A stretch of DNA of 20,667 nt from positions 3,834 through 24,500 of IMG/VR virus record IMGVR_UViG_3300029428_000026, one strand, 5' to 3'. A program made the position numbers and the translations under genes. Shown here in pieces: positions 1-20,667 of the stretch (its first letter is position 1; the number at the start of each line of letters is the position of its first letter). Source of the DNA: a virus. The notes under the pieces are model-generated. The model was not told where the DNA came from. It did not search any database and saw only the letters and a list, made by a program, of their open reading frames with translations.

Positions 1-34
1 GCAATCGTACAGAGAGATCAACTACAACCTCCAG

Positions 35-85
35 GAATAGCCCTGGAATCTCGTATACCCCCTGGAATCTCGTATAGGGCTATTC
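35..85. repeat. A 9-bp inverted repeat, GAATAGCCC (35-43) / GGGCTATTC (77-85), encloses two 16-bp direct repeats CCTGGAATCTCGTATA (42-57 and 61-76).
   Basis: Read directly. The right arm overlaps the stop codon (80-82) of the minus-strand gene 80..1015. Confidence 0.8.
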
Positions 86-1015
86 ATCGGGAAGTCCATG
101 TCGCATAATCATCTCCATAAGCAAAAGCATGGAAGCGGTGGTGTCTGATTTTCCACCGAGCCATTTCCAAACAAGGATATCCGAGACGCGAAGAATCTGG
201 GATGCCTTTTTGACGGCGGATGTTTTGTTAACGAGATGATAGCGGGATTGAACCCATCCAATGAATGCTTGTGCAGAGGTGTCGAGAGTTTTTTTCAGAT
301 TGTCATTGGGCCCTTTACTGCCCATGAGACTTTCCATGCGCTCTACTGTTGAGCTTTTCAGCATACTGTTTTCCCTGATCCATCTGGCAACCGTAGCGGG
401 AGAGACTCCGAGCAAATCCGATGCTTGATTGTATATGTCTCTTGGGCGAGTCTTTTCGTATTTTTGGGCTACCCATTGCAAAAAGTTTTCCAATATGCTT
501 TTCCGTGATGGTTGATTTGTGGGGAGGCCGAGAAGAATTTCCTCTGCCCGATCAATGATTTCTTGAGAAGGAGTGGATAAGCCCTTTGCCCAGTAATAGA
601 CGGTATTAAAATTTTCTTCCAAGAGCGAAGCGCTTATTCTAGCGGCCTCCTTCATGGATTTGCACCCATGAGCGTTTTTTACCGTTTCAAAAAAGGCCAT
701 GATGGAATCATGCCTCCTGCATCTTTCCTTACTGCTTTTTTTCTTATATTCCTCATATCGTTCAGATTTTACAGGGATATACGTGGAAGTCACATATTCG
801 GCAGAGCCGGAGTAGACGTAATGGGCAGGGGGAGGATTTTTCACGATGCGAGCCATGGCCTGAACAACATTTTCGCTAATCGTGTGTTTTTTCATCCGGG
901 CCTTGATCGTATGCTCCGAAACTCCGAGGAAGTCGGCAGCTTTTATCATGGCAGCTTTTAAGGTTTTTGTCCCGTAGGTGATTTTAATCCACTCCACAAA
1001 TTCTTTCGTAGTCAT
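80..1015 (-). CDS. DNA-binding protein built from four tandem helix-turn-helix-like repeats (311 aa); putative phage regulator
   Basis: The module xFxxWVxxxY...AS.LLGVS..TV..W...ME..M recurs four times, beginning near aa 6, 108, 178 and 251. ATG start. Low GC relative to the late operon. Confidence 0.75.
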   Translation of the reverse strand: MTTKEFVEWIKITYGTKTLKAAMIKAADFLGVSEHTIKARMKKHTISENVVQAMARIVKNPPPAHYVYSGSAEYVTSTYIPVKSERYEEYKKKSSKERCRRHDSIMAFFETVKNAHGCKSMKEAARISASLLEENFNTVYYWAKGLSTPSQEIIDRAEEILLGLPTNQPSRKSILENFLQWVAQKYEKTRPRDIYNQASDLLGVSPATVARWIRENSMLKSSTVERMESLMGSKGPNDNLKKTLDTSAQAFIGWVQSRYHLVNKTSAVKKASQILRVSDILVWKWLGGKSDTTASMLLLMEMIMRHGLPDE

Positions 1016-1057
1016 AGCGGGGAAGGAGGGGCGACGAAAACCGCCCCTAGAGGTTAT

Positions 1058-1381
1058 TTAGCGAGCTTCAACGCGGGAAGCGTCCTGCGTCCAGTTGAGG
1101 TTTTCTCCTTCAATTTCTTCGCCCGTCATTTGTTCAAAGACCATGAAGATTTCAACCTTGTTCCCTTCTGCATCATAGCCGGGAGCAGACCATTCTTCCA
1201 TATAGCTGCCGTCTTCGTATTTGTCCGCATAGGAGCCAGGGAAAACCCTGTTGGTGTATTCCATCTGGCGCGCTGCATAGTAGGTCTTGCCTTCAAACTT
1301 GTAGCTGCCAAATTCACGTTCAAGAGCGGTCAGGTTGATTTCTTCTCCGTCTTCCGTGGTGATGATTTTGTTATCGTTCAT
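1058..1381 (-). CDS. Small, strongly acidic hypothetical protein (107 aa; 24 D/E vs 10 K/R)
   Basis: Clean ATG ORF just upstream of, and co-oriented with, 80..1015. Composition counted by hand. No family recognised. Confidence 0.65.
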   Translation of the reverse strand: MNDNKIITTEDGEEINLTALEREFGSYKFEGKTYYAARQMEYTNRVFPGSYADKYEDGSYMEEWSAPGYDAEGNKVEIFMVFEQMTGEEIEGENLNWTQDASRVEAR

Positions 1382-1455
1382 TGTCTTGTTCTTTCTAGTT
1401 TTGTTATTTGGATTATGTCTTCGTTCGGTCCCTTACCTCCCGTCAACAAAATTAA

Positions 1456-1478
1456 GTTACTATAAAATTTATAGTAAC
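1456..1478. promoter_or_regulatory. Perfect palindrome GTTACTATAAA-A-TTTATAGTAAC (11-bp arms); operator-like site in the leftward promoter region
   Basis: Read directly. It lies in the ~300-bp AT-rich noncoding stretch upstream of the minus-strand genes 1058..1381 and 80..1015. Confidence 0.55.
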
Positions 1479-1648
1479 GCAAGAGAAAAAATGAAAAAAG
1501 GTGAAAAAAGTTGTCATTCCGTTTTTGCTTGCGGCCTGGCGCAGAATATGAGAGAAGTAATTTGTTCTTTCTAGGAACACGTCAGCCCTCCGGGGCTGTG
1601 GATTAAAACGATCACAAGATCAGCACGAGCGGAAACGCTCATTCCCTT

Positions 1649-1676
1649 AAAAAGGGCGGTTCTTCGGGGCTGCCCT
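1649..1676 (-). terminator. Candidate intrinsic terminator after the minus-strand gene 1680..2198
   Basis: Stem AGGGCGG (1653-1659) / CTGCCCT (1670-1676), flanked by an A-run (1649-1653) and a T-run (1676-1681). On the minus-strand RNA one stem position is an A:C mismatch, so the hairpin is only moderate. Confidence 0.45.
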
Positions 1677-1679
1677 TTT

Positions 1680-2198
1680 TTATTCCTTCGGGACGGCAGG
1701 GGCGGCAAGTACCCGCCATCCGGCGCCGCTGCCATGTCCGCATTTGCGGAAGCGTTGTGCAGCACAAACCAGGAGCTTATAGACCTTTTTCCCCTTTTCT
1801 TCGCCGTACCGGTCTATCATGTAGAGTTTGAGATTCCGAGCCGTGACTTTCTCTCCATCCGGGGATTCCAGCAGCCATATCTTTGCATGGCAATTTGTCT
1901 CAAATTTCCCTGTTCTGGGGTGCTTCCTGGGGCCGGGAACTCCCCGATGCTTGCAAGCCTCCTGAAAGGCTTCTGACGTGATTTTCCGCCCCTTCTGGGC
2001 TGCATTCGCGCAAGGATAAGAGCAATGTTTCCGCCGAAAGAGTTTTTTAGCGCGGAATTCCTTTCCGCACACGGGGCAGGTGATAGTTTCCCAGGCGGCG
2101 TCATAGTGTGCCTTGAGGCAAGCGCGGGAGCAGTATACGCTTTCCCGCGCTCCGTAGCGCGGCGGAACATCCTTGCCGCATATAGGACACTTTTTCAC
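1680..2198 (-). CDS. Double zinc-ribbon protein (2x CPxCGK...CSxxC) with a NUMOD-like, homing-endonuclease-type DNA-binding C-terminus (172 aa). No nuclease motif seen.
   Basis: GTG start (reverse complement of 2196-2198). Motifs: CPICGK..YCSRAC, CPVCGK..HCSYPC, then GRKITSEAF..HPRTGKF and KIWLLESPDGEKVTARNLKLYM. Confidence 0.7.
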   Translation of the reverse strand: MKKCPICGKDVPPRYGARESVYCSRACLKAHYDAAWETITCPVCGKEFRAKKLFRRKHCSYPCANAAQKGRKITSEAFQEACKHRGVPGPRKHPRTGKFETNCHAKIWLLESPDGEKVTARNLKLYMIDRYGEEKGKKVYKLLVCAAQRFRKCGHGSGAGWRVLAAPAVPKE

Positions 2199-2303
2199 AA
2201 AATCTGTATATGTGAGAGGGTCAGATTTGTCAATGGGCCCAGAAAGGAATGAACAAACAGAGTGCTTGATTTGCTAGCTACTTGTCCTCTAGAGTAGACC
2301 TGC

Positions 2304-2819
2304 AGGAAAAAGAAGCAATCACCTACCGCCAACAAGAAAATAGGACGGCCCAGCCTCTATACGGAGGCATTAGCCGACGAGATAGCCTCCCGTTTAGCCA
2401 ACGGGGAAACGATGAAGTCCATTTGCTCGGACGATCACATGCCGGAGGTTTTAACTGTCTGGAGATGGAGGCACGAACGGGAAGAGTTTTGTAAACTCAT
2501 TCAACGCGCGCGGGAAGCGCAGTCAGAAGCCATGCTCGACGAGTGTCAGTCTTTGTCAGATGCCGCTGCCCAGGTTGCCCTCGACCCCGAATGCGGATCC
2601 GCCTCCGTCGCTGCCAAGAAGCTCGCCATTGAAACGCGGCTGAAAGTTGCCGCCCGTTTTGCCCCCGAGAAATTCGGCGACCGAGTCCGGCAGGATGTAG
2701 CGGGCGTTCCCGGCGCTCCATTGGAACGCAAAATCACCCTGGACCCCGAGCAGCTTGCCCAGCTCCGGGAAGACGAGAAAACCGCGCTGGAAACCATTGC
2801 CGGCAAACTCCACCCTTAA
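2304..2819 (+). CDS. terS: Terminase small subunit. Proposed AGG start at 2304; the first canonical start is ATG 2412.
   Basis: The frame is open from 2298. GRPSLYTEALADEIASRLANGETMKSICSDDHMPEV..W, the typical TerS HTH N-terminus, is encoded at 2343-2411, upstream of ATG 2412. There is no in-frame ATG/GTG/TTG in 2298-2411. C-terminal ...RFAPEKFGDR is typical of the family. Confidence 0.85.
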   Translation, partial: RKKKQSPTANKKIGRPSLYTEALADEIASRLANGETMKSICSDDHMPEVLTVWRWRHEREEFCKLIQRAREAQSEAMLDECQSLSDAAAQVALDPECGSASVAAKKLAIETRLKVAARFAPEKFGDRVRQDVAGVPGAPLERKITLDPEQLAQLREDEKTALETIAGKLHP

Positions 2820-2825
2820 TCGAGC

Positions 2826-4199
2826 AGGAACCATCTCCCCGTCAGCTTCTTCCTCCGTCACATTCTCGGACTCGATCCTTATCCCTGGCAAATCGAGGCC
2901 ATCAAGGCATTGCTTCTTGGAAAGGTGAGGCTGGGAGGTCGAAGCGTGGCCATGGTTGCTCCGAACGGATCGGGAAAGACGAGCCTATCCATTGCGCCCG
3001 CAATCCTGTGTTTCCTTACCTATTTTCCTCGGGGTCAGGTGCCAGTCACGTCATCATCATGGATGCAGGTAGAAAAACAGCTCTTTCCCGCGCTTCGCCG
3101 CTATATGGATAACCCTTTCTTTGACGGCTGGACATTCAACAAAACCGAAATCCGCACGCCGGAAGGAGGATTTGCCGTGGGATTCTCAACCGACAACGCG
3201 GGACGCGCAGAAGGGTGGCATCCGAAAATCTCGCCCGACGTGGATCCCGTCTTTTACGTCCTGGACGAAGCCAAGACCATTCCCGACTCCATCTTCACCG
3301 CTGTTTCCCGCTGCACGCTCTTCAACGCGTTCATCACCTCGTCGCCGGGTGCCGATTCCGGAACCTTTTACGACTGCTTCCACAAAAATTCATCCCTCTA
3401 CTACAAAATCCGCGTTAAATACGAGGATTGCCCGCACATCGAAATCAACGATCCAGGCAAGGCCGAACGCCTGAAAAAAGAATACGGCGAACAGTCCTCC
3501 TTCTACCGCTCGGCCATCCTCGGCGAATTCACGGACCTTGACGGGCAATCCGTCATTTCCCGCCGCGCCATCATGGAGCTGCTCAACAACCCGCCTCCCT
3601 TTTTGGACACCGGGGAGACCTGCGGCGGCTTTGACTTCGCCGCCGGGGGTGATGAGAATGTCTTCGCGGCCGGACAGGGCAACCGTTTTTTCATCGCCGA
3701 CCACTGGGCCGACCCAGACACTGTAGGAGCGCGCGGACGTTTCCGCCGAAAGGCCGCCGAACTCGGCATCTCTGCCGACCGCATCTTTGCCGACGGCGAC
3801 GGACTGGGGCTTCCCATCATTGACGACTTCCGGGCTGAGGGTTTCCCCGTGCACTCCTACCGGGGAGGCTTCCCGGCAGATGACACACAAGCCTTTGTCA
3901 ACCTCCGCGCCCAAGCATGGAGGGCACTAGCCCGAGCCATCGAAGAAAAAGAGCTCATTCTCGACATCGACGAGGATACCGTTGAGCAACTGGTCGCCCC
4001 CCGCCTCCAGACGGACGCGATTGGGCGCGTCAAAATCGAGAGCAAGGAGGACATGGCAAAGCGGGGCGTCCGCTCTCCAGACCGTGCTGACGCGCTCGTC
4101 ATGGCCTGGCACGCGCGCCGGCACAGCGGACTTGTCCGGGAGCTTGGGACTTGGTATGCCAGACATCCGGCACAAAAACGCGCCATTGGCAGATATTAG
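2826..4199 (+). CDS. terL: Terminase large subunit. Proposed AGG start at 2826; the ORF track starts at TTG 2910.
   Basis: Walker A is VAPNGSGKTS. The conserved N-terminal LGLDPYPWQIEAIKAL is encoded at 2865-2909, upstream of TTG 2910. There is no in-frame ATG/GTG/TTG between the TerS stop (2817-2819) and 2910, and none in any frame across roughly 2806-2880. Confidence 0.9.
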   Translation, partial: RNHLPVSFFLRHILGLDPYPWQIEAIKALLLGKVRLGGRSVAMVAPNGSGKTSLSIAPAILCFLTYFPRGQVPVTSSSWMQVEKQLFPALRRYMDNPFFDGWTFNKTEIRTPEGGFAVGFSTDNAGRAEGWHPKISPDVDPVFYVLDEAKTIPDSIFTAVSRCTLFNAFITSSPGADSGTFYDCFHKNSSLYYKIRVKYEDCPHIEINDPGKAERLKKEYGEQSSFYRSAILGEFTDLDGQSVISRRAIMELLNNPPPFLDTGETCGGFDFAAGGDENVFAAGQGNRFFIADHWADPDTVGARGRFRRKAAELGISADRIFADGDGLGLPIIDDFRAEGFPVHSYRGGFPADDTQAFVNLRAQAWRALARAIEEKELILDIDEDTVEQLVAPRLQTDAIGRVKIESKEDMAKRGVRSPDRADALVMAWHARRHSGLVRELGTWYARHPAQKRAIGRY

Positions 4200-4201
4200 G
4201 G

Positions 4202-4242
4202 TTGACAATATATCAACATATCTATATGTGTTGATTTATATT
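4202..4242 (+). promoter_or_regulatory. Promoter-like AT-rich block with an operator-like inverted repeat, immediately upstream of the tRNA
   Basis: One candidate is TTGACA (4202-4207) + 17 nt + TATGTG (4225-4230). An alternative is TCAACA (4213-4218) + 18 nt + TATATT (4237-4242). Inverted repeat ATCAACATAT (4212-4221) / ATGTGTTGAT (4226-4235) matches 9/10. Confidence 0.45.
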
Positions 4243-4246
4243 CAAT

Positions 4247-4320
4247 CGCAGGGTAGTGAAACGGTATCATATGAGGTTCCTGTCCTCATGTCGGAGGTCC
4301 AACTCCTCCCCCTGCAACCA
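4247..4320 (+). tRNA. tRNA with anticodon CCT (decodes AGG), an initiator-type acceptor stem (C1xA72) and an encoded CCA
   Basis: Hand-folded cloverleaf. Acceptor CGCAGGG/CCCTGCA; U8 A9; D stem GTGA/TCAT; D loop AACGGTA. Anticodon stem TGAGG/CCTCA; loop TT-CCT-GT; variable loop TGTC. T stem GGAGG/CCTCC; T loop TCCAACT; discriminator A; CCA. Atypical points are C at position 55 and the 1:72 mismatch. Confidence 0.8.
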
Positions 4321-4343
4321 ACCTTTTCTTTTCCTCCCGCCGC

Positions 4344-5708
4344 AGGTTTAACGCCGTCCGAAATATCCTCAACGCCCCGAAGCTGGTCGCCCAACAGGAG
4401 ACCAGAATCAAGGAGCTGGAAACAGACCTCGCCCGGCAAGCCTTGACGGACCGGAGCCGCACTCCTGGCCGCCCTCAATGGTTTGAATACTGGGACCCTC
4501 TTCAGGGCGCCGGCTTGCAAACACTTATCGATGCACGCAACGAAGCCAGACGCGGCGCCTTTGCGCGGCAAATGCTCATCTGGGACGAGGTTATCTACTC
4601 GGACGGACTTCTGGGCATGCTCTACTCCCGGTTGATTGAAAGCGTTTCCATGCAGGGCTGGAAGATTGACGCCGCGGACGACAGCCCGGAAGCCCAGCAG
4701 CAGAAAAACGCCCTGGAAGAATTCTACAACTCCGTCAACGGACTTCAGCAGTCCTTCGGGCATCTGGCCTCCGCTCTGTTCTACGGCTACGCCCACCTCC
4801 AATATATTGAGGACGCCTGGGGCCGGAGGTTTGAATTCATTCCCCAGCGTTACTGGGTGCGGCCCGGGGAACTTAATGAGTGGCAATTTAACCCCCACTG
4901 TTATATCGGCGTCGATACCGGGGAAAGTGTGGAAGACGAAACTCTCGTCGTGATGGAGCACCGTTACCCCATCCTGTTCCCTGCTTCCCGCGCATCCTTT
5001 GAGCGCAACCACGCCAAGATGATCTGGGACAACCACATGGACCGTTACGGCTCCGCCCCGGCTATTATCACAGCCCCCAAGGAGGCAAGCGCCGCTGTTA
5101 TGGACGCACTTGAGCGCGCCTGCGAAGAGCTCAAGTCTGGCGCATCCGTCGTCCTGCCTCCCGGCTGTACAGCAGAACCTCTCAAGGCATCCTCCATCAA
5201 CGAAAACTACTTCCTATCCCGCATCAACATGGCCGACAAGGATCAGGTGCGGTTTGTGATGGCAGGAACCTTGACTGTTCTGAATGAATCGGGCTCCGGC
5301 ACGCTGGCCGGGTCTGCCCATACGGACAGCTGGAACTCGGTGGTCTCCGCCGTGTGCTCCAAGGTAGCGGAAGCTTTTAACGCCTCCATCAGCCCGCTGG
5401 TGCTGAGAGACGGCGAACCGCTGGCCCGCCTCCAAATCACCTTTGACACCGTTCAGACGCCGCTGCAGAAGGCCGAGGAAATTGCCACTCTTGCGGATGG
5501 AGGCGTCCGTCCCGAGAAAACCGAAATCGAAGAAAAGATCGGCATGTCCATCGAAGACGCGAAGGCAGCCGATCCCGCAGCGGCTGCCGTCAACCGGGAA
5601 CCGGAAGGCACATACATCCCCGCCGACGCTTACGAGCAGCTGCAGCAGCTCATTTATACCGGGCTCATGAAAGGATTTAGCGATGATCAGTACCAAACAA
5701 ATCAATGA
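4344..5708 (+). CDS. Portal protein, Mu gp29/DUF935-like. Proposed AGG start at 4344; the canonical alternative is TTG 4443.
   Basis: Resembles the Mu gp29 N-terminal region (..LQTLIDARNEARRGAF..DEVIYSDGLLG..). The frame is open upstream and encodes the plausible coiled coil MFNAVRNILNAPKLVAQQETRIKELETDLARQA. Confidence 0.85.
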   Translation, partial: RFNAVRNILNAPKLVAQQETRIKELETDLARQALTDRSRTPGRPQWFEYWDPLQGAGLQTLIDARNEARRGAFARQMLIWDEVIYSDGLLGMLYSRLIESVSMQGWKIDAADDSPEAQQQKNALEEFYNSVNGLQQSFGHLASALFYGYAHLQYIEDAWGRRFEFIPQRYWVRPGELNEWQFNPHCYIGVDTGESVEDETLVVMEHRYPILFPASRASFERNHAKMIWDNHMDRYGSAPAIITAPKEASAAVMDALERACEELKSGASVVLPPGCTAEPLKASSINENYFLSRINMADKDQVRFVMAGTLTVLNESGSGTLAGSAHTDSWNSVVSAVCSKVAEAFNASISPLVLRDGEPLARLQITFDTVQTPLQKAEEIATLADGGVRPEKTEIEEKIGMSIEDAKAADPAAAAVNREPEGTYIPADAYEQLQQLIYTGLMKGFSDDQYQTNQ

Positions 5709-7290: not shown

Positions 7291-8214
7291 AGGGCTACTC
7301 CATTTTGCTCAGCCGTCCAGTTCACCGATGTCCTGACCGCCTACTCAGCCGGCTCCGGGAACACCGAAGAGAACTCCATTATCAGCCGCATCGCGCCGAT
7401 CGTCCCGGTTTACGACCTCAATTTCCAGTACAAGGTCTGGGACACGGAATCTGCCTTTACGGTCCAGCCGATCCAGGTGGGACCGGGCGAACCTCCCCGC
7501 CAGACCGTCCTGCGCGGCAGGAACGAAACCGACACCCTTCAGGGGTACGGCTTAACCTTGCCGATTCCGGACGCCTTGCTGGGCGTCAACCGCGAAAAGG
7601 CGCAGGCTATCACCCTGGCGGAATACAAGCTCATCGAATCACAGTTTGTGACCTCGTATGAATATGAACGCGCCAAGCTCATCACCAGCCAGTTGCCTGC
7701 CGCAGCCGGTTACGGGGACTGGGCCAACGAACAGAAGAATCCGCTGACGGATCTGGATAATGCCATCCTGTCCATCAATGCGGCGACTGGACACATGCCT
7801 AACACCATCGTCTTTGGCATCAACGCCTGGCAGCTCCTGCGAGCCAACCCCATTGCCAGACAGGTGGTGTCATTCAACAGTGTCGGCCTCTTCAACGAAG
7901 ACCTGCTCCGCAATGCGCTGATTCGGCCTATCAGGGATATTTACATCGCAGCCATGCCCTACCGCGACGCTTCCGGCGACGCCAAGACCATCATGGAGAA
8001 CGAAGTCTATGTCCTGTACAAGGAAGACTCCCCGACGCAGTTCGACGCCTCTGCCATCAAGACGTTTGGTTTGTCCGGCAAGCTCCGCCGCGAAGTCATC
8101 ACGGAATACAAGCCGACGCCCGCTTTGACGCTGGTAACCAACCGCGTCTACTCGCTGACCAAGCTGACCAACCCGTCCGCCATCGTCCGCATCGACGCGA
8201 CGGCCACGGCTTAA
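7291..8214 (+). CDS. Major capsid protein. Proposed AGG start at 7291; the ORF track starts at GTG 7477.
   Basis: A 307-aa product at the capsid position. The frame is open from 7276 and encodes protein-like MATPFCSAVQFTDVLTAYSAGSGNTEENSIISRIAPIVPVYDLNFQYKVWD.. upstream of GTG 7477. There is no in-frame ATG/GTG/TTG in that stretch. Confidence 0.85.
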   Translation, partial: RATPFCSAVQFTDVLTAYSAGSGNTEENSIISRIAPIVPVYDLNFQYKVWDTESAFTVQPIQVGPGEPPRQTVLRGRNETDTLQGYGLTLPIPDALLGVNREKAQAITLAEYKLIESQFVTSYEYERAKLITSQLPAAAGYGDWANEQKNPLTDLDNAILSINAATGHMPNTIVFGINAWQLLRANPIARQVVSFNSVGLFNEDLLRNALIRPIRDIYIAAMPYRDASGDAKTIMENEVYVLYKEDSPTQFDASAIKTFGLSGKLRREVITEYKPTPALTLVTNRVYSLTKLTNPSAIVRIDATATA

Positions 8215-11409: not shown

Positions 11410-12057
11410 AGGCCTAATACTTACGACCCTACTTACAGCAATCGCAATGTGACTCCGCAGATTACGGGCGTCCTGGCGATTTTTCTCCCTGACGGCATCA
11501 AGGTGACCGAGGAAGGCGGCGCCTCCTACGTTACCGGACCTTATCAGTTCCCGGAGCCTCCTACTGCGCCTCCCGTCGATCCGACGGCAGGCCCCGCATT
11601 CCCCTGGGTGAGCTTTGGCTTGCTGGGTGCGTTCCAATCCGTAGCTACGCAGGTGGAAGGAGAAGTCACCCGCTTCTATGGCGGTCCTCTTGGTTACCGC
11701 GTCCAGCGCAAGAATACCACCACTGGGAAGCGCATGACTTTCACGACGCCGGACATGTCCCCGGAATACTTCCAGCTCTCTTTTGCGCTGGGCGGGGCCC
11801 CGGCAAACGGAAAGGAAGCCGTTGCTATCGGGCATGGCGGCGACAACAAAATCGAAGGTTACCTGCAGCTGTGGTATCAGAACGATATTGGCGAGATATT
11901 TCTTACCTACATCGGGCATGGCGCCTTGCGTCTCTTGCAGGACCCGGAACACACAACCGCGGTGGCGTCCGCGCAGTTTGAATTTGAGATGGATTACAAG
12001 GGTCAGTACCAGGCCACGCCGTCCAATATTCAGGATGTGACGACGCCCGCTTCCTGA
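11410..12057 (+). CDS. Putative major tail (tube) protein. Proposed AGG start at 11410; the canonical alternative is GTG 11449.
   Basis: A ~215-aa beta-rich protein at the tube position, followed by a strong terminator. In-frame AGG lies 5 codons after the upstream stop, in the context ATTCAAGCATCAGG. Confidence 0.6.
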
Positions 12058-12070
12058 CATACCAACCCAA

Positions 12071-12100
12071 GGGGCGCAAAAGCGCCCCGCAACCCTTTTT
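12071..12100 (+). terminator. Rho-independent terminator after the tube-like gene
   Basis: GGGGCGC (12071-12077), loop AAAA, GCGCCCC (12082-12088), then a T-run TTTTT at 12096-12100. Confidence 0.75.
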
Positions 12101-12110
12101 CTTCCGCTTC

Positions 12111-14231
12111 AGGCAACAGGCAGGCAAATATGATATACGGACCGTCACGGGACTCAACCAGTCACTGGTCGTGCGCGTGGTGGATTTCCAGGGAGATCCC
12201 GTCGATATGGGCGGCGTCACCCTGCGCGGAGCCGTTCGCCTCAAGACGGGTATTGCCGAGTTCGGCTTTTCCCGTGACGACGAGGGCAACGGCGTGATTT
12301 CGTGGGCCTCGGTACCCGCGGGCATGTGGTCCTACGATGTCTTCATGGATGACGGCAACGAGGAAAGCCCGCTTCTCTATGGATGCTTTGTTTCCTCAGG
12401 CCGGGTGACGCCGGACTTGCCGGACGAGCAGCAGGCGGTAGCGGGCGCGGTCGTCGTGCAGCTGCCGGAAGGAAGCGGATGCGTGCAGGTGGTGCTTGAT
12501 AATGCGTCAAGCGCCGCCTGGTACGCGGAGCAGGCCAAGAAGTACGCCGAGAATTTCAATCTTTCGGTGGACCGGGTCACTACCGGCGAGCCTGGCACTC
12601 CTGCCGCAGCGGAAGCCGTGAAAGGCTCGGAAGCGGGCTCTTATCTGTTGTCGTTTACCATCCCCAAAGGAGACGCCGGTCCCGAAGGCCCACCAGGCCC
12701 GCAGGGGGAACCGGGCGAAACCGGCCCCGAAGGCCCTCAGGGTCCCAGGGGCGACGCAGGACCTCAAGGTCCTCAGGGAGCGACCGGAGAACAGGGACCA
12801 AGAGGCGACATTGGAGAAACCGGACCGCAGGGTCCTGCCGGCCCGCAAGGCCCCGAGGGGCCGGAGGGTCCCCAAGGACCCCGTGGCGAGAAAGGAGATA
12901 CCGGGGATGTTAATCCGGACGGGTCTTATAACTGGACGCAGCCGCAGACCTACGACGCCACGATCACCGCAATCGAAGGAGTCCGTGTGCCGCTGCCCGC
13001 CACAGGGCAGAATGCCATTTCCTATGAGGGAATGATAACCATGACGGCTGCCGGCCAATGGAGCCGCACCAACTATTTTCTGGAATCCGTCATTCCGTCA
13101 TGGGTGACCGCCTTGGTGGAAGCCCAGTCGTTGAACACAAGCTACGCAATTGCTACCGCTAACGCCTCCCTGAAGAAGGGAGTATTTAATAACGACTTGT
13201 GCGATATGGTATTAACCATGACGGCGGCCGGGGGTGTTTCTGTTATCGGCAAATCCACGGGATCATGGAAATTTGCCAATTACATGGGCAACAATAGAAA
13301 TAACGAATATGCTGCCGCTTGCGCCTGGCGGATACTTGGCTCCGACAAGGTGTCGGTTCTCTTGGGCAGCACTGCCCAGGGGTACGCTACGACTGCCGAT
13401 CCGCTGGCGTCCTGCTATTCACATCCTGTGCACTGGGTGGATTATGCCTGGGATAATGCAAATTACAGGTATCCGCAAAACAATACAGTCAATGGAGCGA
13501 GAGGGGGCGACAATGTGCCGGCGTATCAGATCACTACCTACCCTATGGGGTATCTGGGGAGCAATAAGTCGGCCTTGATAAGGGGGACGTTTTACGGACC
13601 CCTCAAGGTAGATTCCCATTATGTTTGGGCATTGGCTCCGGCTTTTACCTACGTCTCCGCGGCCATGACGCCACCCAACCCCGATGACCAGGAGATTTAC
13701 AATCGCTGGGCTTTGTTTGTGGACAAGCAATATGTAATGGATATGGCTTCCTCCTTTTGGGGCGCCGGCAACACAGCATGCCTTACAACCAAATTCAAGG
13801 CGCACGAAGTCAGCGGGACTTATCAGGCGGGCCTCCGGATGGGAGGAATGAGGATAGACAATGCACCCTCACTGGGCATAACCAACTCCTGGGTCCTCAT
13901 GAAGGACACGGTAATGGAGGGCGTGACACCTAAACCAGTTCCAGAAGTAACGGCTTCTGCTCAGGAAGTTCCGGCCTCTGGCGGCGAGGTGACATTGACG
14001 GCGTCTTCCACCCTCTCCGAGGCTATCTATGTGCTGAACGATACCATGTGCGGACATGACCCCGCCGCTGTGTGGTGCACGCAATCCTCTGAAGAAATAG
14101 GGTCCGGCGGCGGCCAGGTTGTCCTGACGCTGGCGGCAAACACGACTGGACAACCGCGGCAGGTGTGGGCGTTTGTCGGCCACCATTACGCCGAGGCCGC
14201 CGTTGTAGAAATCAACCAATTAGCGCAATAA
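12111..14231 (+). CDS. Collagen-repeat tail fibre with a BACON/Ig-like C-terminal domain. Proposed AGG start at 12111; the canonical alternative is GTG 12171.
   Basis: Contains 27 uninterrupted G-X-Y triplets. A fibre-type motif, [10 protein letters not shown], precedes them. The C-terminus (13947-14228) fits the BACON-like pattern ..[35 protein letters not shown]. Confidence 0.85.
12669..12911 (+). repeat. Collagen-like G-X-Y triplet repeat (27 triplets) inside the fibre gene
   Basis: [81 protein letters not shown]. Confidence 0.95.
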
Positions 14232-15418: not shown

Positions 15419-15949
15419 AGGAAAATAGCCATTGATATAGGCCATGCCAACAACACCGGAGCCCGTGGAAACAGGCTTGAAGAACACGCCGTAGCAGCGA
15501 CGATTGCGGAACGCCTCGCGCCTATGCTCAGAAAGCTGGGCGCCCAGGTGGACGTAATTGACTTTCCGGCCCAGAGCAACACGGACGACCTGAACGCCAC
15601 CATCAAGGCCGCCAACGAAGGCGGCTACGACTTCGGGATTTCCCTGCATTGTGACTCATCGGATAATGTGCAAGCTCACGGCGCCCATGTGTGCTTCTAT
15701 CCCGGGAGCGTTAAGGGAAGCCGGCTTGCCATGTGCATCGCGGAACCTCTTGCCCGGCTGCTCCCAGGACGGGACTGCACGGTGTTGGCCCGTCCGGGGC
15801 TGGCCGTCCTGAAAAGGACGCGCTGCCCGTGGGTGCTGTGCGAATGCGGCTTTATCACCAATCCTGAAAATGCCGCCCTTATGAAGGACCATCCCGAAGC
15901 CATTGCGGAAGCCATTGCGGAAGGAGTGAAGGCCTATTCCAAGCTGTAG
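15419..15949 (+). CDS. N-acetylmuramoyl-L-alanine amidase (Amidase_3) endolysin. Proposed AGG start at 15419; the ORF track starts at ATG 15524.
   Basis: KIAIDIGHANNTGARGNRLEEH.., which includes the first zinc ligands, is encoded at 15422-15523, upstream of ATG 15524. There is no in-frame ATG/GTG/TTG after the stop at 15404-15406. AAGGAG (15406-15411) sits 7 nt before AGG 15419. Confidence 0.88.
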   Translation, partial: RKIAIDIGHANNTGARGNRLEEHAVAATIAERLAPMLRKLGAQVDVIDFPAQSNTDDLNATIKAANEGGYDFGISLHCDSSDNVQAHGAHVCFYPGSVKGSRLAMCIAEPLARLLPGRDCTVLARPGLAVLKRTRCPWVLCECGFITNPENAALMKDHPEAIAEAIAEGVKAYSKL

Positions 15950-17515: not shown

Positions 17516-19402
17516 ATGGCTACCAAGAAAGAAATCGAAATCAAGCTCAAGTCCACGCTGGACGGAAAAGGCGTGGAAGAAGCAAAGCAGAAGATTGACT
17601 CCCTGAATAAATCCACAGACCAGCTCGACAAAGGCAGTCAAAAGGCAACCAAGAGCATCAAGAACATGGGGCAGGGGATGCTGCAGGTTGCCTACTTCAT
17701 GGATGACGTCCAATATGGCATCAAGGGCATCCTGAACAATATTCCGGGCCTTGTAATAGGCTTCGGCGGCGGGGCGGGCCTGGCCGGCGCTCTCTCCCTT
17801 GCCACGCTTGCAGGCGCGAAGCTCTACGAGTGGCTTTCCGATAGTGCGGACAAGACAGACGATCTTGCCAAAAAAATGAAGGAGCAGAGCAAAGAGGTTG
17901 CCGAAGCCTATCGTCAGTCAATCCGGGAAAGCTATCAGGCCTTGCAGGAATTCAACAAGGAAGAACGCACCAAGACCGTCAATGAAGAGTATCAAAACTA
18001 TGTAAAGGGCATTACCCGGGAATTTGAATATCAGACGGAAGAGCTTGAAAAGCAAATTCGCCTGAGACGAGAGGAAGCGGCCCGTCAGAAGGGAATTGAT
18101 ACACGTCAGGCAGAGCTTGACCGCGTCAATTTGGAAGTGGACTACCAAGAAGGAAGAATCTCCAAGAGGCAACGCGATTACGGCCTGATGATGGTTGATC
18201 AGAATCTGGACCAGAAAATCCGCCAGAGTGATTTAGGCGTGGAGCAGGCTAATTATATGGATATTGGAAAACAGCTTGCGGAGGCAGTCAAAGCCCGAGA
18301 TGCTGCGGAAGCTCATGCTTTTGATATGCAGTTTAAACAAGGGAACCTTCTTTCTCCTCAAAATATTCTTGGACTTTTACAGCAGCAAGAACGTGCTCAA
18401 CGGAGGATCGACACTGCAGAAAGTCAACTTCCAGATTTACGCGGGGAAATATGGGAGAAAAATAAAGAGTATAACGCGGCTTTGAGACAAACTGGTGGTT
18501 ATGAAAATTCAAACTCCATACAGGCGAAAAAAGAAATTGATGATTTAATTGCGAAGCAGGAGAGGCTTGTTGAATTAATCAAAACAGCGAGGGAAGAGGC
18601 TAATCAGGCAAACGATCAATTGGGATCCCTTCAGGCTGTGCTGAGAGAAGGCGGCGTAAATATTGAACTAGACTATGGACAAGGATCAGATGTGAATAGT
18701 CGTTTCAAGCAAGCCTCAACTGCGGTAGAAGAGTTTAAAAAAAATACGGATGCTGCGAAAAAACAATTTGATGTTTTAAGGGAGAAAGCTGGTTCATTGG
18801 GTGATGCGATGGCTTCCGCTGAGGCGTCCATCAAAAATATGGAGCAAACCGATGCTCTTCAAAATCAAATAGACGCCGGCAAGGTTAAATCATTTAACTT
18901 GCAAAGAGACAGGGAAGAAGCAGAGGAAGCCCGAAGAAATGAAGAAAAAATAAAGAAGGCTCGTGAGCAGGCCGAAAAGGAGGCTCAAAAGCAGACTGCC
19001 GAGAGGCAGCAGGCAATGTTCCGCGGCATTACTCTTGAAGGAGTTCCCGAGCATCCTACCGCCCAGCAACGCCCCCGGATCGCAGCTGCCCGCGAAGCTT
19101 TGAATGCAGGGAAGAAACGCATTGCAGAAAGCATTTCGGCAACAGATACGGAAATCGACCCCAGCGAGCTTCAAGGCGCGTTTGACGTTATGGAAAACGC
19201 ATTGAGAGAAAGTGGACAATACACAAAAAAATTAATGGATTATTTGAAAACCATAGCAACAGCACAGGCCGCGAATGTCAATGCTGTGCAAGTGGATACA
19301 AAAAAATATGTAGATGCTAAATTCGAGGAAATCTTGAAAATAGCGCAGAAGAGCAACGGAAGATTGCAAACAGGGATAAACAGGCTTGCCGGAGGCCATT
19401 AA
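17516..19402 (+). CDS. Tail tape measure protein
   Basis: A 628-aa protein, mostly Lys/Glu/Gln-rich coiled coil, with a Gly-rich hydrophobic segment GLVIGFGGGAGLAGALSLATLAGA. It sits at the tape-measure position. Confidence 0.8.
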   Translation: MATKKEIEIKLKSTLDGKGVEEAKQKIDSLNKSTDQLDKGSQKATKSIKNMGQGMLQVAYFMDDVQYGIKGILNNIPGLVIGFGGGAGLAGALSLATLAGAKLYEWLSDSADKTDDLAKKMKEQSKEVAEAYRQSIRESYQALQEFNKEERTKTVNEEYQNYVKGITREFEYQTEELEKQIRLRREEAARQKGIDTRQAELDRVNLEVDYQEGRISKRQRDYGLMMVDQNLDQKIRQSDLGVEQANYMDIGKQLAEAVKARDAAEAHAFDMQFKQGNLLSPQNILGLLQQQERAQRRIDTAESQLPDLRGEIWEKNKEYNAALRQTGGYENSNSIQAKKEIDDLIAKQERLVELIKTAREEANQANDQLGSLQAVLREGGVNIELDYGQGSDVNSRFKQASTAVEEFKKNTDAAKKQFDVLREKAGSLGDAMASAEASIKNMEQTDALQNQIDAGKVKSFNLQRDREEAEEARRNEEKIKKAREQAEKEAQKQTAERQQAMFRGITLEGVPEHPTAQQRPRIAAAREALNAGKKRIAESISATDTEIDPSELQGAFDVMENALRESGQYTKKLMDYLKTIATAQAANVNAVQVDTKKYVDAKFEEILKIAQKSNGRLQTGINRLAGGH

Positions 19403-19448
19403 CAGCTTTTAGACTTGCACCCACGCCAGTTTATAGCACCATACCACT

Positions 19449-20030
19449 ATGGCTAATTATTACGTTGCTTCCAACTCAAACAATGCCGAGGGCCCCTACT
19501 CTTTTGAAGAACTTGAGGCCTTATACAAGGAAGGGGAAATCTTATCAGAAACACTTGTTTTCCCTGAAGGCGGTCAAGAGTGGATGCCATTTGGAAGGGT
19601 TTATCATCTGACCAAAAACACTAATAGAAAAGCAGAAAAAAAAGAAACGGAGCGCAAACCAAAGAAGAGCTTTATTGAAGTTCTCTTAGATGAGTCAGAA
19701 AAAAGAAAAGCAGAAAAAAAAGAAACGGAGCGCAAACCAAAGAAGAGTTTTATTGAATGCTCTCTTAGAGATTCCAGAAAAAATCCTTCTTGGAAAGAAA
19801 TCCAAGAACTGAACGATCAAGAGCCTCTAAAAATCACAATAGAGGGGATATTCCGTGTTGTTGGCGTAATAGCTTTACTTGCTGGGATTGTGCTGTTTTA
19901 CTCTACCGCAGATGATGGGCAACAGGCCTTATGTTTCATTTACCTGATTTCTGGGGCTTTCTCTTGCCTCCTGTGTTTTTGGTTTGCGAAAGTGCTGACG
20001 TTGCTTCAGCAGATTGCCGACAAAAAATAA
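19449..20030 (+). CDS. GYF_2 (DUF4339)-like domain membrane protein with an internal 26-aa tandem duplication; moron candidate
   Basis: N-terminal YYVASNSNNAEGPYSFEELEALYKEGEILSETLVFPEGGQEWMPFGRVYHL. Duplicated RKAEKKETERKPKKSFIE. C-terminal hydrophobic region. About 35% GC. Confidence 0.75.
   Translation: MANYYVASNSNNAEGPYSFEELEALYKEGEILSETLVFPEGGQEWMPFGRVYHLTKNTNRKAEKKETERKPKKSFIEVLLDESEKRKAEKKETERKPKKSFIECSLRDSRKNPSWKEIQELNDQEPLKITIEGIFRVVGVIALLAGIVLFYSTADDGQQALCFIYLISGAFSCLLCFWFAKVLTLLQQIADKK
19626..19781 (+). repeat. 78-bp tandem duplication (2 copies) inside the GYF-domain gene
   Basis: The 54-nt cores at 19626-19679 and 19704-19757 differ at one position (19670 C vs 19748 T). The 3' parts of the units have diverged. 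Confidence 0.9.
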
Positions 20031-20057
20031 ATATCAACCTAACCATATTCAAGCAGC

Positions 20058-20667
20058 AGGAACCATAACATTACCATAGATGACTTGCTGGCTCTCAAGC
20101 CATCAAGCCTTACGCACGATCAACAGAGCTTCTCCACGTCCACCATTACGGCAGTTTACCCCGTCAGGACGCTTGGAGAAACTTTACCGTACAAGCAATT
20201 CGACACCGTCACCATCTCCCAAAACGGGCAAGTCATCCTAGTGGGGCTGGTGTCCAATATTGAAAAAGTATACAGCGGCAGCCAGCGGTCCTGGAGGATT
20301 GTTTTTTCCGACCCCTGGTATTACCTCGCTAATTGCTATGCTTTGGAAAATGGATGGCAGCCGACGTTTGGGCTTTTCCCCCGTAAAGGCGTAGAGGGTA
20401 TTATTCCCAAGGTCAACCTGAGCGGCGCTTTGTCCAGCGTGCTTGACATGGCAAAGCACCACCCAGCCAGCTATGAGCTACGCATCAGAGACGACAAGCA
20501 GCTGATACCGTGGAATGCATCCTGCGATACTCTTCAAAGTCTGCTGCAGTCCATCCGGCGCTGGTCTCCGCGTATGGTCAGTTATTATGACTACACGGGA
20601 GAACGGCCCAAGCTCATCATCACGGACTATGACTCCCTTGAACCTATTTCCCTGCCGCTGCAACCCT
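20058..20667 (+). CDS. Distal tail/baseplate-type structural protein, 3'-truncated by the window edge. Proposed AGG start at 20058; the canonical alternative is TTG 20085.
   Basis: The frame is open from 20043 to the window end, so it is absent from the ORF track for lack of a stop. The sequence is protein-like (..VILVGLVSNIEKVYSGSQRSWRIVFSDPWYYL..). The two minus-strand ORFs listed here are shadows. Confidence 0.7.

Follow-up and report, generated by a model that had tools for sequence, protein, structure and literature searches.

A phage tRNA with initiator features and anticodon CCU that appears to start translation of late genes at AGG in Akkermansia phages and in an unrelated phage family

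A tRNA gene carried by a phage of the gut bacterium Akkermansia very probably encodes an initiator tRNA that reads AGG, and the starts of a subset of the phage's late genes would have been converted from AUG to AGG. The gene occupies positions 4247-4320 of a 20,667-nucleotide stretch of viral DNA (IMG/VR record IMGVR_UViG_3300029428_000026, positions 3,834 to 24,500), hereafter called the window, from an Akkermansia phage or prophage; it is 82% identical to the Akkermansia phage DTMo-2021a (CP084202.1; host NBRC 114322). A preliminary description, made from the letters of the window, had proposed that an initiator tRNA was here retargeted from AUG to AGG; the proposal gains support from seven conserved AGG starts in the window and from the way in which tRNA and AGG starts track one another in a second, unrelated phage family.

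The tRNA gene is sited between the stop codon of the large terminase gene TerL (4199) and the portal open reading frame, in the following setting:

4202..4242, plus strand: promoter-like region 5′ of the tRNA, of putative function (TTGACA invariant in six aligned loci)
4247..4320, plus strand: initiator-type tRNA with anticodon CCU (ARAGORN, Rfam, and conservation and covariation among 16 variants)
4321..4343, plus strand: pyrimidine-rich non-coding spacer from the tRNA 3′ end to the portal AGG

The tRNA is real. ARAGORN makes a single call in the window, a tRNA-Arg(CCT) at 4247-4320 on the plus strand, and Rfam RF00005 scores it at 51.2 bits, above the gathering score of 29 (E = 1.5e-08), marking pair 1:72 as its sole non-standard pair; RNA folding gives z = −2.8 against shuffles. 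Both programs accept the 74-nt cloverleaf with anticodon CCU that had been described in the TerL-portal gap, and the details of that description hold when read against the sequence. The acceptor end, CGCAGGG...CCCTGCA-A-CCA, has C1xA72, G2:C71, C3:G70, A4:U69, A73 and an encoded CCA. The anticodon stem, UGAGG/CCUCA, carries G:C pairs at 30:40 and 31:39 and an A:U pair at 29:41 (au/GC/GC) and encloses the loop UUCCUGU, with G37. Pair 11:24 is an elongator-like U:A, the D-loop AACGGUA has U at position 20 and the T-loop UCCAACU has an atypical C55. Upstream of the gene, TTGACA (4202-4207) is followed by the −10-like hexamers TATGTG (4225-4230) and TATATT (4237-4242), and an inverted repeat, ATCAACA/TGTTGAT (4212-4218 / 4229-4235), lies within the promoter-like region; the promoters of the tRNA and of terS, the small terminase gene, are ambiguous, as the hexamer pairs picked by a consensus scan differ from those kept in relatives.

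The same gene stands at the same site in about 40 IMG/VR contigs, in DTMo-2021a and in one A. muciniphila MAG. From about 40 related Akkermansia-phage contigs we obtained 16 distinct tRNA sequence variants, in which every stem pair except 1:72 is paired in 100% of variants and compensatory double changes occur at eight stem pairs—values reached in none of 500 shuffles. All variants carry C3:G70 and G30:C40, 15 have G2:C71 (the remaining one G:U) and 12 have G:C at all three of 29:41, 30:40 and 31:39; the window copy, with au/GC/GC, shows the strict initiator set of three G:C pairs only in part. Every variant has the anticodon CCU and not the CAU of methionine initiators. Initiators typically have A11:U24 and elongators Y11:R24; all 16 variants have U11:A24 (alignment columns 11:23). 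The mismatch at 1:72, noted at the outset, persists in every homologue checked, as C.A in 16 of 16 variants here and as C.A, A.A or G.A in the second family. Judged by this pattern of variation, the tRNA is under selection both for the cloverleaf and for an unpaired 1:72 with G2:C71, C3:G70 and G30:C40. In bacterial initiators, the 1:72 mismatch with 2:71 and 3:70 is the major determinant for the formylase, G30:C40 is the essential one of the three G:C pairs and au/GC/GC is a natural variant (PMC5389676).

The phage tRNA thus resembles bacterial tRNAfMet (E. coli metZWV/metY) in its unpaired 1:72, G2:C71, C3:G70, A73 and encoded CCA, in keeping G30:C40, in having G:C at 29:41 and 31:39 in most variants and, as it appears, in its use at first codons. 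It differs from tRNAfMet in having CCU and not CAU, U:A and not A:U at 11:24, G37, C55 and a small D-loop, and in being encoded by a phage for a subset of phage genes only; because its anticodon is CCU and not CAU, it would not be a substrate of MetRS by E. coli rules. It therefore falls outside tRNAfMet in the strict sense, yet appears to work like an initiator.

An AGG start was recognised first at the portal gene and then, by a scan of all long open frames in the window and alignments of relatives, at six more genes, seven in all:

2304..2819, plus strand: terS, small terminase subunit (AGG start 2304-2306)
2826..4199, plus strand: TerL, large terminase subunit (AGG start 2826-2828, 6 nt past the terS stop)
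4344..5708, plus strand: portal protein, Portal_Mu family (AGG start 4344-4346, 23 nt past the tRNA)
7291..8214, plus strand: major head protein (AGG start 7291-7293)
11410..12057, plus strand: ORF 11410, a late gene of no assigned function (AGG start 11410-11412)
12111..14231, plus strand: collagen-repeat tail fibre (AGG start 12111-12113)
15419..15949, plus strand: endolysin, amidase-type (AGG start 15419-15421)

Of roughly 22 late genes in the window, these seven start with AGG, and two thirds keep ATG. The phase of third-position mismatches confirms the reading frame of every AGG-start gene. Comparison of relatives demonstrates that the seven open at an invariant AGG and have no usable canonical start, as set out gene by gene below.

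For terS, AGG is present in 38 of 38 aligned loci, the sequence 5′ of it is unalignable and similarity to DTMo-2021a begins at 2302; read from AGG, the product matches positions 3-124 of the PHROG terS profile (E = 7e-33), as against 34-124 only (E = 3e-21) when read from the first ATG, at 2412. Among 43 loci, 42 have a TerL C-AGG that follows the terS stop by 5-6 nt; L039, which diverges most, carries at the corresponding position an ATG preceded by a stretch rich in purines. The first canonical start of TerL is a TTG 28 codons past AGG.

In the portal frame the last stop codon upstream lies within the tRNA, and the first canonical start, TTG 4443, is CTG in DTMo-2021a. Coding-type conservation, in which differences fall at third positions, sets in sharply at AGG 4344-4346, while the preceding spacer differs throughout; AGG is invariant in about 40 loci and codons 2-8 change synonymously or conservatively. 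The spacer between tRNA and portal AGG measures 20-24 nt among relatives, in lengths that differ by other than multiples of 3, and varies in sequence; loci of the L009 type have an in-frame TAG 9 nt 5′ of the AGG. All 45 loci aligned at the major head protein gene share its AGG; an in-frame TAG stands 15 nt 5′ of it in the window, and other loci have a 1-nt indel upstream. The first canonical start is a GTG 62 codons past AGG, and in the major head protein profile PHROG 1005 position 14 is already matched by residue 13.

ORF 11410 has AGG in 13 of 13 loci, preceded by a spacer that carries an indel, and its GTG at 11449 is GTA, GTT or GTC in relatives. The fibre gene has AGG in 11 of 11 loci, and its GTG at 12171 is GTC in relatives; before it stand a terminator-like hairpin (12071-12088), which shows compensatory changes, and a T-tract whose length varies among loci. 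The endolysin start follows a Shine-Dalgarno sequence, AAGGAG; the window reads AAGGAG-N7-AGG where DTMo-2021a reads AAGGAG-N7-ATG at the same codon, and the product matches PHROG 435 from residue 2 (E = 5e-42). Together with TerL of L039, this endolysin start establishes by alignment that AGG and ATG replace one another at one start position among relatives.

It is scarcely credible, in the light of these alignments, that the AGG starts are annotation artefacts and that translation begins instead at a downstream canonical start, or that the upstream gene supplies the N-termini by readthrough, frameshifting or reinitiation. Such an account draws some strength from terS and TerL, which share a frame in the window and are separated by TAA and 6 nt, so that translational coupling is possible there. 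It is opposed by spacer lengths that differ by non-multiples of 3, by coding-type conservation that begins at AGG while the downstream TTG and GTG codons are not conserved, by profile alignments that require the N-terminal residues, and by terS, portal, major head and fibre genes that have no upstream open reading frame for coupling; in the second family, moreover, the AGG codons stand at canonical distance from strong Shine-Dalgarno (SD) sites. Readthrough or fusion of TerL with terS, considered separately on account of their common frame in the window, was ruled out because the spacer between them is 5 nt in many relatives.

The second family came to light in a pattern scan of IMG/VR for C1xA72, G2:C71, C3:G70, a CCU anticodon and an encoded CCA, which returned the Akkermansia family and three unrelated low-GC contigs, L081 among them. 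L081 has 33% GC, uses SD sites and carries its tRNA(CCU) just 5′ of TerL; an SD-AGG opens three of its genes (portal, major head protein and a virion protein), none of which has an ATG in the 38 to about 118 codons that follow the AGG. Residues 5-278 of its major head protein align with positions 5-294 of the 297 in PHROG 422 (E = 1e-57).

We compared 71 relatives of this head protein. All 12 loci with tRNA(CCU) have AGG at portal and head genes, and at the virion protein gene too where the sequence covers it. In the four loci whose sequence covers the site upstream of TerL and contains no tRNA(CCU) there (L161, L163, L165 and L173), all three genes start with ATG. About 45 more distant relatives likewise have ATG and lack the tRNA. 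The major head protein of L173 is 99% identical to that of L081 and yet has an ATG start, and both L173 and L165 retain the upstream hairpin without the tRNA. Presence or absence of a 1:72-mismatched tRNA(CCU) in this family, as read from the genomes compared, matches AGG or ATG in the three virion genes; the counts are not phylogenetically independent, although close relatives show the two forms, ATG and AGG, intermingled.

The tRNA of the second family varies at nucleotide 1 (C, A or G) while nucleotide 72 is always A, so that the two are never paired and the mismatch itself is conserved. One variant has C2:G71, and G30:C40 is present in this family as well as in the tRNAs of two further phage contigs, L075 and L082. 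At the same site, the ATG-start locus L163 carries a tRNA with anticodon CAU (anticodon loop CUCAUAA) that is identical to a CCU tRNA at 58 of 77 positions, with an identical D-arm, and the best matches of the family's CCU tRNA in 50,697 phage genomes are mostly annotated tRNA-Met, none of them tRNA-Arg. The simplest history for this family would be a phage-borne initiator tRNA in which one anticodon base changed (A35 to C); each change of start from AUG to AGG is likewise of a single base.

Such tRNAs are rare. A looser scan that left nucleotide 1 free returned just the two families and two high-GC phage tRNA-Arg(CCU) genes, L230 and L231; in these two, which serve as controls, A72 is paired with U1 as in ordinary elongators. 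When the first pattern was run on 185,579 genomes, one per species, a single match proved to be a tRNA, and it lies in a prophage of A. muciniphila. The other 70 of its 71 pattern matches were chance matches, many of them in GC-rich genomes, and a match in L051 was also due to chance, as there is no tRNA there. L075 and L082, which have a C1.A72 tRNA(CCU), showed no clear AGG starts in the early genes and tRNA cluster that were examined, where only SD-ATG starts occur. These two cases count against an initiator reading, as do, in the window tRNA, the presence of two of the three G:C pairs, U11:A24, U20 and C55.

An ordinary phage tRNA-Arg that supplies a rare codon, which the preliminary description had kept as its alternative, fits these observations poorly. 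The tRNA would then be an elongator tRNA-Arg(CCU), the AGG starts would be read weakly by near-cognate host fMet-tRNA, AGG being one position away from AUG, and the co-occurrence of the two would be coincidental; we hold this to be very improbable. Phages commonly carry tRNAs that read rare Arg codons, and the window tRNA has the anticodon and the ARAGORN label (tRNA-Arg) of phage elongator tRNA-Arg(CCU/UCU) genes that serve codon supplementation. Unlike those, it has an unpaired 1:72, co-varies with AGG starts and belongs to a phage that is not rich in AGG: its late genes have AGG at 28 of their 5609 internal codons (5.0 per 1000, 0.5%), and 9% of Arg codons are AGG. Where an ordinary tRNA-Arg(CCU) has A72, it has U1, as in the controls, whereas here the mismatch is selected; the tRNA body of the second family resembles tRNA-Met; and tRNA and AGG starts come and go jointly among close relatives. 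An elongator would also leave the most abundant virion protein, the major head protein, dependent in two families on an AGG start, despite the weakness of AGG initiation in E. coli.

Dual use—initiation at AGG together with EF-Tu-dependent decoding of internal AGG as arginine—is possible, although we think it unlikely. It would give a role to the tRNA at the 28 internal AGG codons and would suit the elongator-like U11:A24 and the T-loop and D-loop, which are unlike those of an initiator. The 1:72 mismatch disfavours EF-Tu in E. coli, and it is kept in all variants of two families, even where nucleotide 1 changes; internal AGG is rare, moreover, and presumably served by host tRNAs.

Use of the tRNA at the first codon of genes is a reading on purely comparative grounds, from the seven AGG genes and the second family. 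If it is an initiator for AGG, the tRNA would be charged, most likely with arginine, since it has the ArgRS determinants C35, U36 and A73 and lacks the CAU on which MetRS depends. In E. coli, ArgRS identity lies in C35, U36 or G36, A or G at 73, and A20. By those rules the phage tRNA has C35, U36 and A73, with U at 20, though the rules of the Akkermansia ArgRS may differ; U at position 20, in place of the A20 used by E. coli ArgRS, makes both the charging efficiency and the amino acid uncertain. Formylation would be permitted, and EF-Tu disfavoured, by the 1:72 mismatch with 2:71 and 3:70; against this reading, the E. coli formylase handles basic aminoacyl groups poorly. Delivery to the P site would fall to IF2, and the tRNA would pass the check by IF3 at AGG because the pairing of CCU with AGG is fully complementary, G30:C40 being present as well. 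IF3 checks codon-anticodon pairing at initiation (PMC11744186, PMC6868393). AGG is the weakest start codon tested in wild-type E. coli, and IF3 specifically represses initiation there; host fMet-tRNA(CAU) is very poor on AGG, and AGG-start genes should therefore need the phage tRNA.

Position 37 of the tRNA invites a further idea, a weak one, namely that it might pair with the mRNA base at −1 and so lengthen the codon-anticodon helix to 4 bp. G37 faces C(−1) at six of the seven AGG starts in the Akkermansia family, and U37 faces A(−1) in 27 of 30 cases in the second; C(−1) is also found at 7 of 13 ATG-start genes in the window. The G37 variant L160 has G, C and A at −1, and variants with A37 in the Akkermansia family keep C(−1).

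AGG may, on this hypothesis, be a private start codon that gates the translation of packaging, head, fibre and lysis genes. The tRNA gene lies 3′ of terS and TerL, both of which would need the tRNA, and its position counts against the initiator reading. We lean towards the view that a private start codon of this kind has evolved repeatedly, in at least one lineage likely by way of CAU to CCU and AUG to AGG, that it acts on terminase, portal, capsid, fibre and lysis genes as a translational lock to which the phage tRNA alone is the key, and that the proteins concerned start with a residue other than methionine, probably arginine or formyl-arginine.

Evasion of host defence, and not temporal gating, could be the reason for the system, with an altered anticodon loop that lets late initiation survive nucleases, of the host or of competitors, that cut initiator tRNA; we find this improbable. 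Phage tRNAs with altered anticodon loops have reportedly been proposed to evade tRNA-targeting defences, a VapC toxin is said to act on initiator tRNA, and the AGG-start set consists of virion and lysis genes, as such an account would have it. The late genes that start with ATG, two thirds of the total, would nevertheless stay vulnerable.

The nearest parallels to an AGG-reading initiator come from the laboratory, where engineered initiators with swapped anticodons start translation at matching non-AUG codons (bioRxiv 10.1101/2021.05.25.445580; PMC11744186). They include the amber tRNAfMet-CUA, i-tRNA(AAC) (bioRxiv 10.1101/2021.05.25.445580) and the non-AUG initiators of mRNA display (PMC11744186); IF3 tolerates them through codon-anticodon pairing, and the altered anticodon determines which amino acid initiates. 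These are constructs on E. coli tRNAfMet, whereas the phage system is natural, appears to be fixed in at least two lineages and, unlike them, comes with matching start-codon changes in essential virion genes. The full-text literature searched, which lies mostly outside subscription journals, held no natural non-AUG initiator tRNA, only engineered ones.

Among natural systems, crAss-like and other gut phages combine suppressor tRNAs with stop-codon recoding, for which a role as a timing lock has been proposed. Like them, the phages described here would tie late or lytic genes to the phage's own decoding by means of a phage tRNA with an altered anticodon; stop-codon recoding acts on elongation and termination at internal stops, whereas the AGG system, with its initiator determinants, would act on initiation.

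One consequence concerns annotation. Because the first ATG, GTG or TTG lies from 28 to more than 100 codons downstream, standard gene finders miscall AGG-start genes, so that virome annotations of such phages miss their terminase, portal and capsid genes or give them in truncated form.

If true, the reading proposed here would be the first natural start-codon reassignment and the first routine non-Met initiation in a bacterial system: the start codon, thought fixed to AUG and the near-cognates of one initiator tRNA, would prove to have been reassigned in nature. It raises the question of whether abundant virion proteins begin with formyl-arginine. If confirmed, the system would also provide synthetic biology with a naturally optimised orthogonal pair of initiator and start codon. 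The gut bacterium Akkermansia muciniphila is of medical importance, and for one phage that has the system, DTMo-2021a, both the genome sequence and the host strain (NBRC 114322) are recorded. For the phages themselves, confirmation would mean that initiation joins suppressor tRNAs and stop-codon recoding among the ways in which phages rewire decoding, and that they have a simple means to hold dangerous late genes silent until a moment of the phage's choice.

Two features of the CCU tRNAs stand out, the base at position 37 and the T-loop. In the unrelated low-GC phage family (family 2; loci L154–L179), 11 of the 12 tRNAs carry U37, a base that is very unusual at this position in tRNAs of any kind, while the tRNA of the window and its Akkermansia-phage relatives (family 1) has G37 (window 4283). 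Immediately 5′ of the AGG start, A predominates in family 2 and C in family 1; pairing of this base with position 37 would lengthen the codon–anticodon helix to four base pairs. The A37 and G37 variants break this pairing rule, and leader composition is a confounder of the correlation. Although U55 is near-universal among tRNAs, the family-1 tRNA in the window has C55; a few relatives have the T-loop UUCAACU and one has UCUAACU. Given this variation, the T-loop is relaxed in the family-1 lineage.

The T-loop and the further tRNA features are as follows:

Window 4298-4304: T-loop UCCAACU, with C55, of the family-1 tRNA
L075 8950-9024, minus strand: tRNA(CCU) with C1.A72, G2:C71, C3:G70 and G30:C40, in a low-GC phage contig
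L082 2657-2730, plus strand: tRNA(CCU) with the same four features, in a low-GC phage contig
L163 2152-2228: CAU-anticodon tRNA, loop CUCAUAA, at the site occupied by the CCU tRNA in family-2 relatives
L154 ~2270-2325, also in L166, L167, L171, L173 and L165: conserved hairpin (e.g. GAGGC-TGAAGAG-GCCTC) followed by TTATATAT, directly 5′ of the family-2 tRNA

The L082 tRNA(CCU) sits within a five-gene tRNA cluster. In the parts of L075 and L082 covered, which hold early genes and a tRNA cluster, the only starts are ATG codons behind Shine-Dalgarno sequences. [quoted passage not shown] This tRNA may be the ancestral form, or a copy in decay. The family-2 hairpin is still present in relatives that have no tRNA, and is a candidate terminator, promoter element or packaging site.

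Three upstream regions in the window carry possible signals:

Window 2267-2306: TTGATT-N18-TAGAGT, its 3′ end 8 nt 5′ of the terS AGG
Window 4202-4242: TTGACA with -10-like hexamers, plus an inverted repeat (ATCAACA/TGTTGAT), directly 5′ of the tRNA, within the late operon
Window 12071-12110: terminator-like hairpin GGGGCGC-AAAA-GCGCCCC, then a T-tract, immediately 5′ of the fibre AGG

A consensus scan did not call the hexamer pair upstream of terS. In most relatives a hexamer of the form TAnnnT (TATAAT, TATGAT, TATGGT) stands as far from the AGG as TAGAGT does in the window. Transcription of terS may therefore begin at the AGG or right beside it, giving a leaderless or almost leaderless mRNA. 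Upstream of the tRNA, TTGACA is invariant among aligned relatives, and the region could be a dedicated, perhaps regulated, promoter of the tRNA; the consensus scan picks hexamer pairs other than those indicated by the conservation pattern. The fibre-leader hairpin shows compensatory changes among relatives, and the T-tract that follows varies in length. The portal AGG is also preceded by a U-rich tract, 3′ of the tRNA.

Standard ORF calling places the starts of the AGG-start genes (window 2826-4199, 4344-5708, 7291-8214 and others) at the first ATG, GTG or TTG, 28 to 62 codons too late, so that stretches such as the ‘TerL-portal gap’ look non-coding. The GenBank record of DTMo-2021a, a sequenced Akkermansia phage, carries no annotation at all. 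G+C content is 44–49% at window 1-2300 and 18000-20667, against 54–64% in the structural module. Genes at window 80-2198 lie on the opposite strand, one matching an HNH-endonuclease, and have no counterpart in DTMo-2021a. Together, the lower G+C, the strand switch and this missing counterpart mark the modules on either side of the AGG-start block as mosaic.
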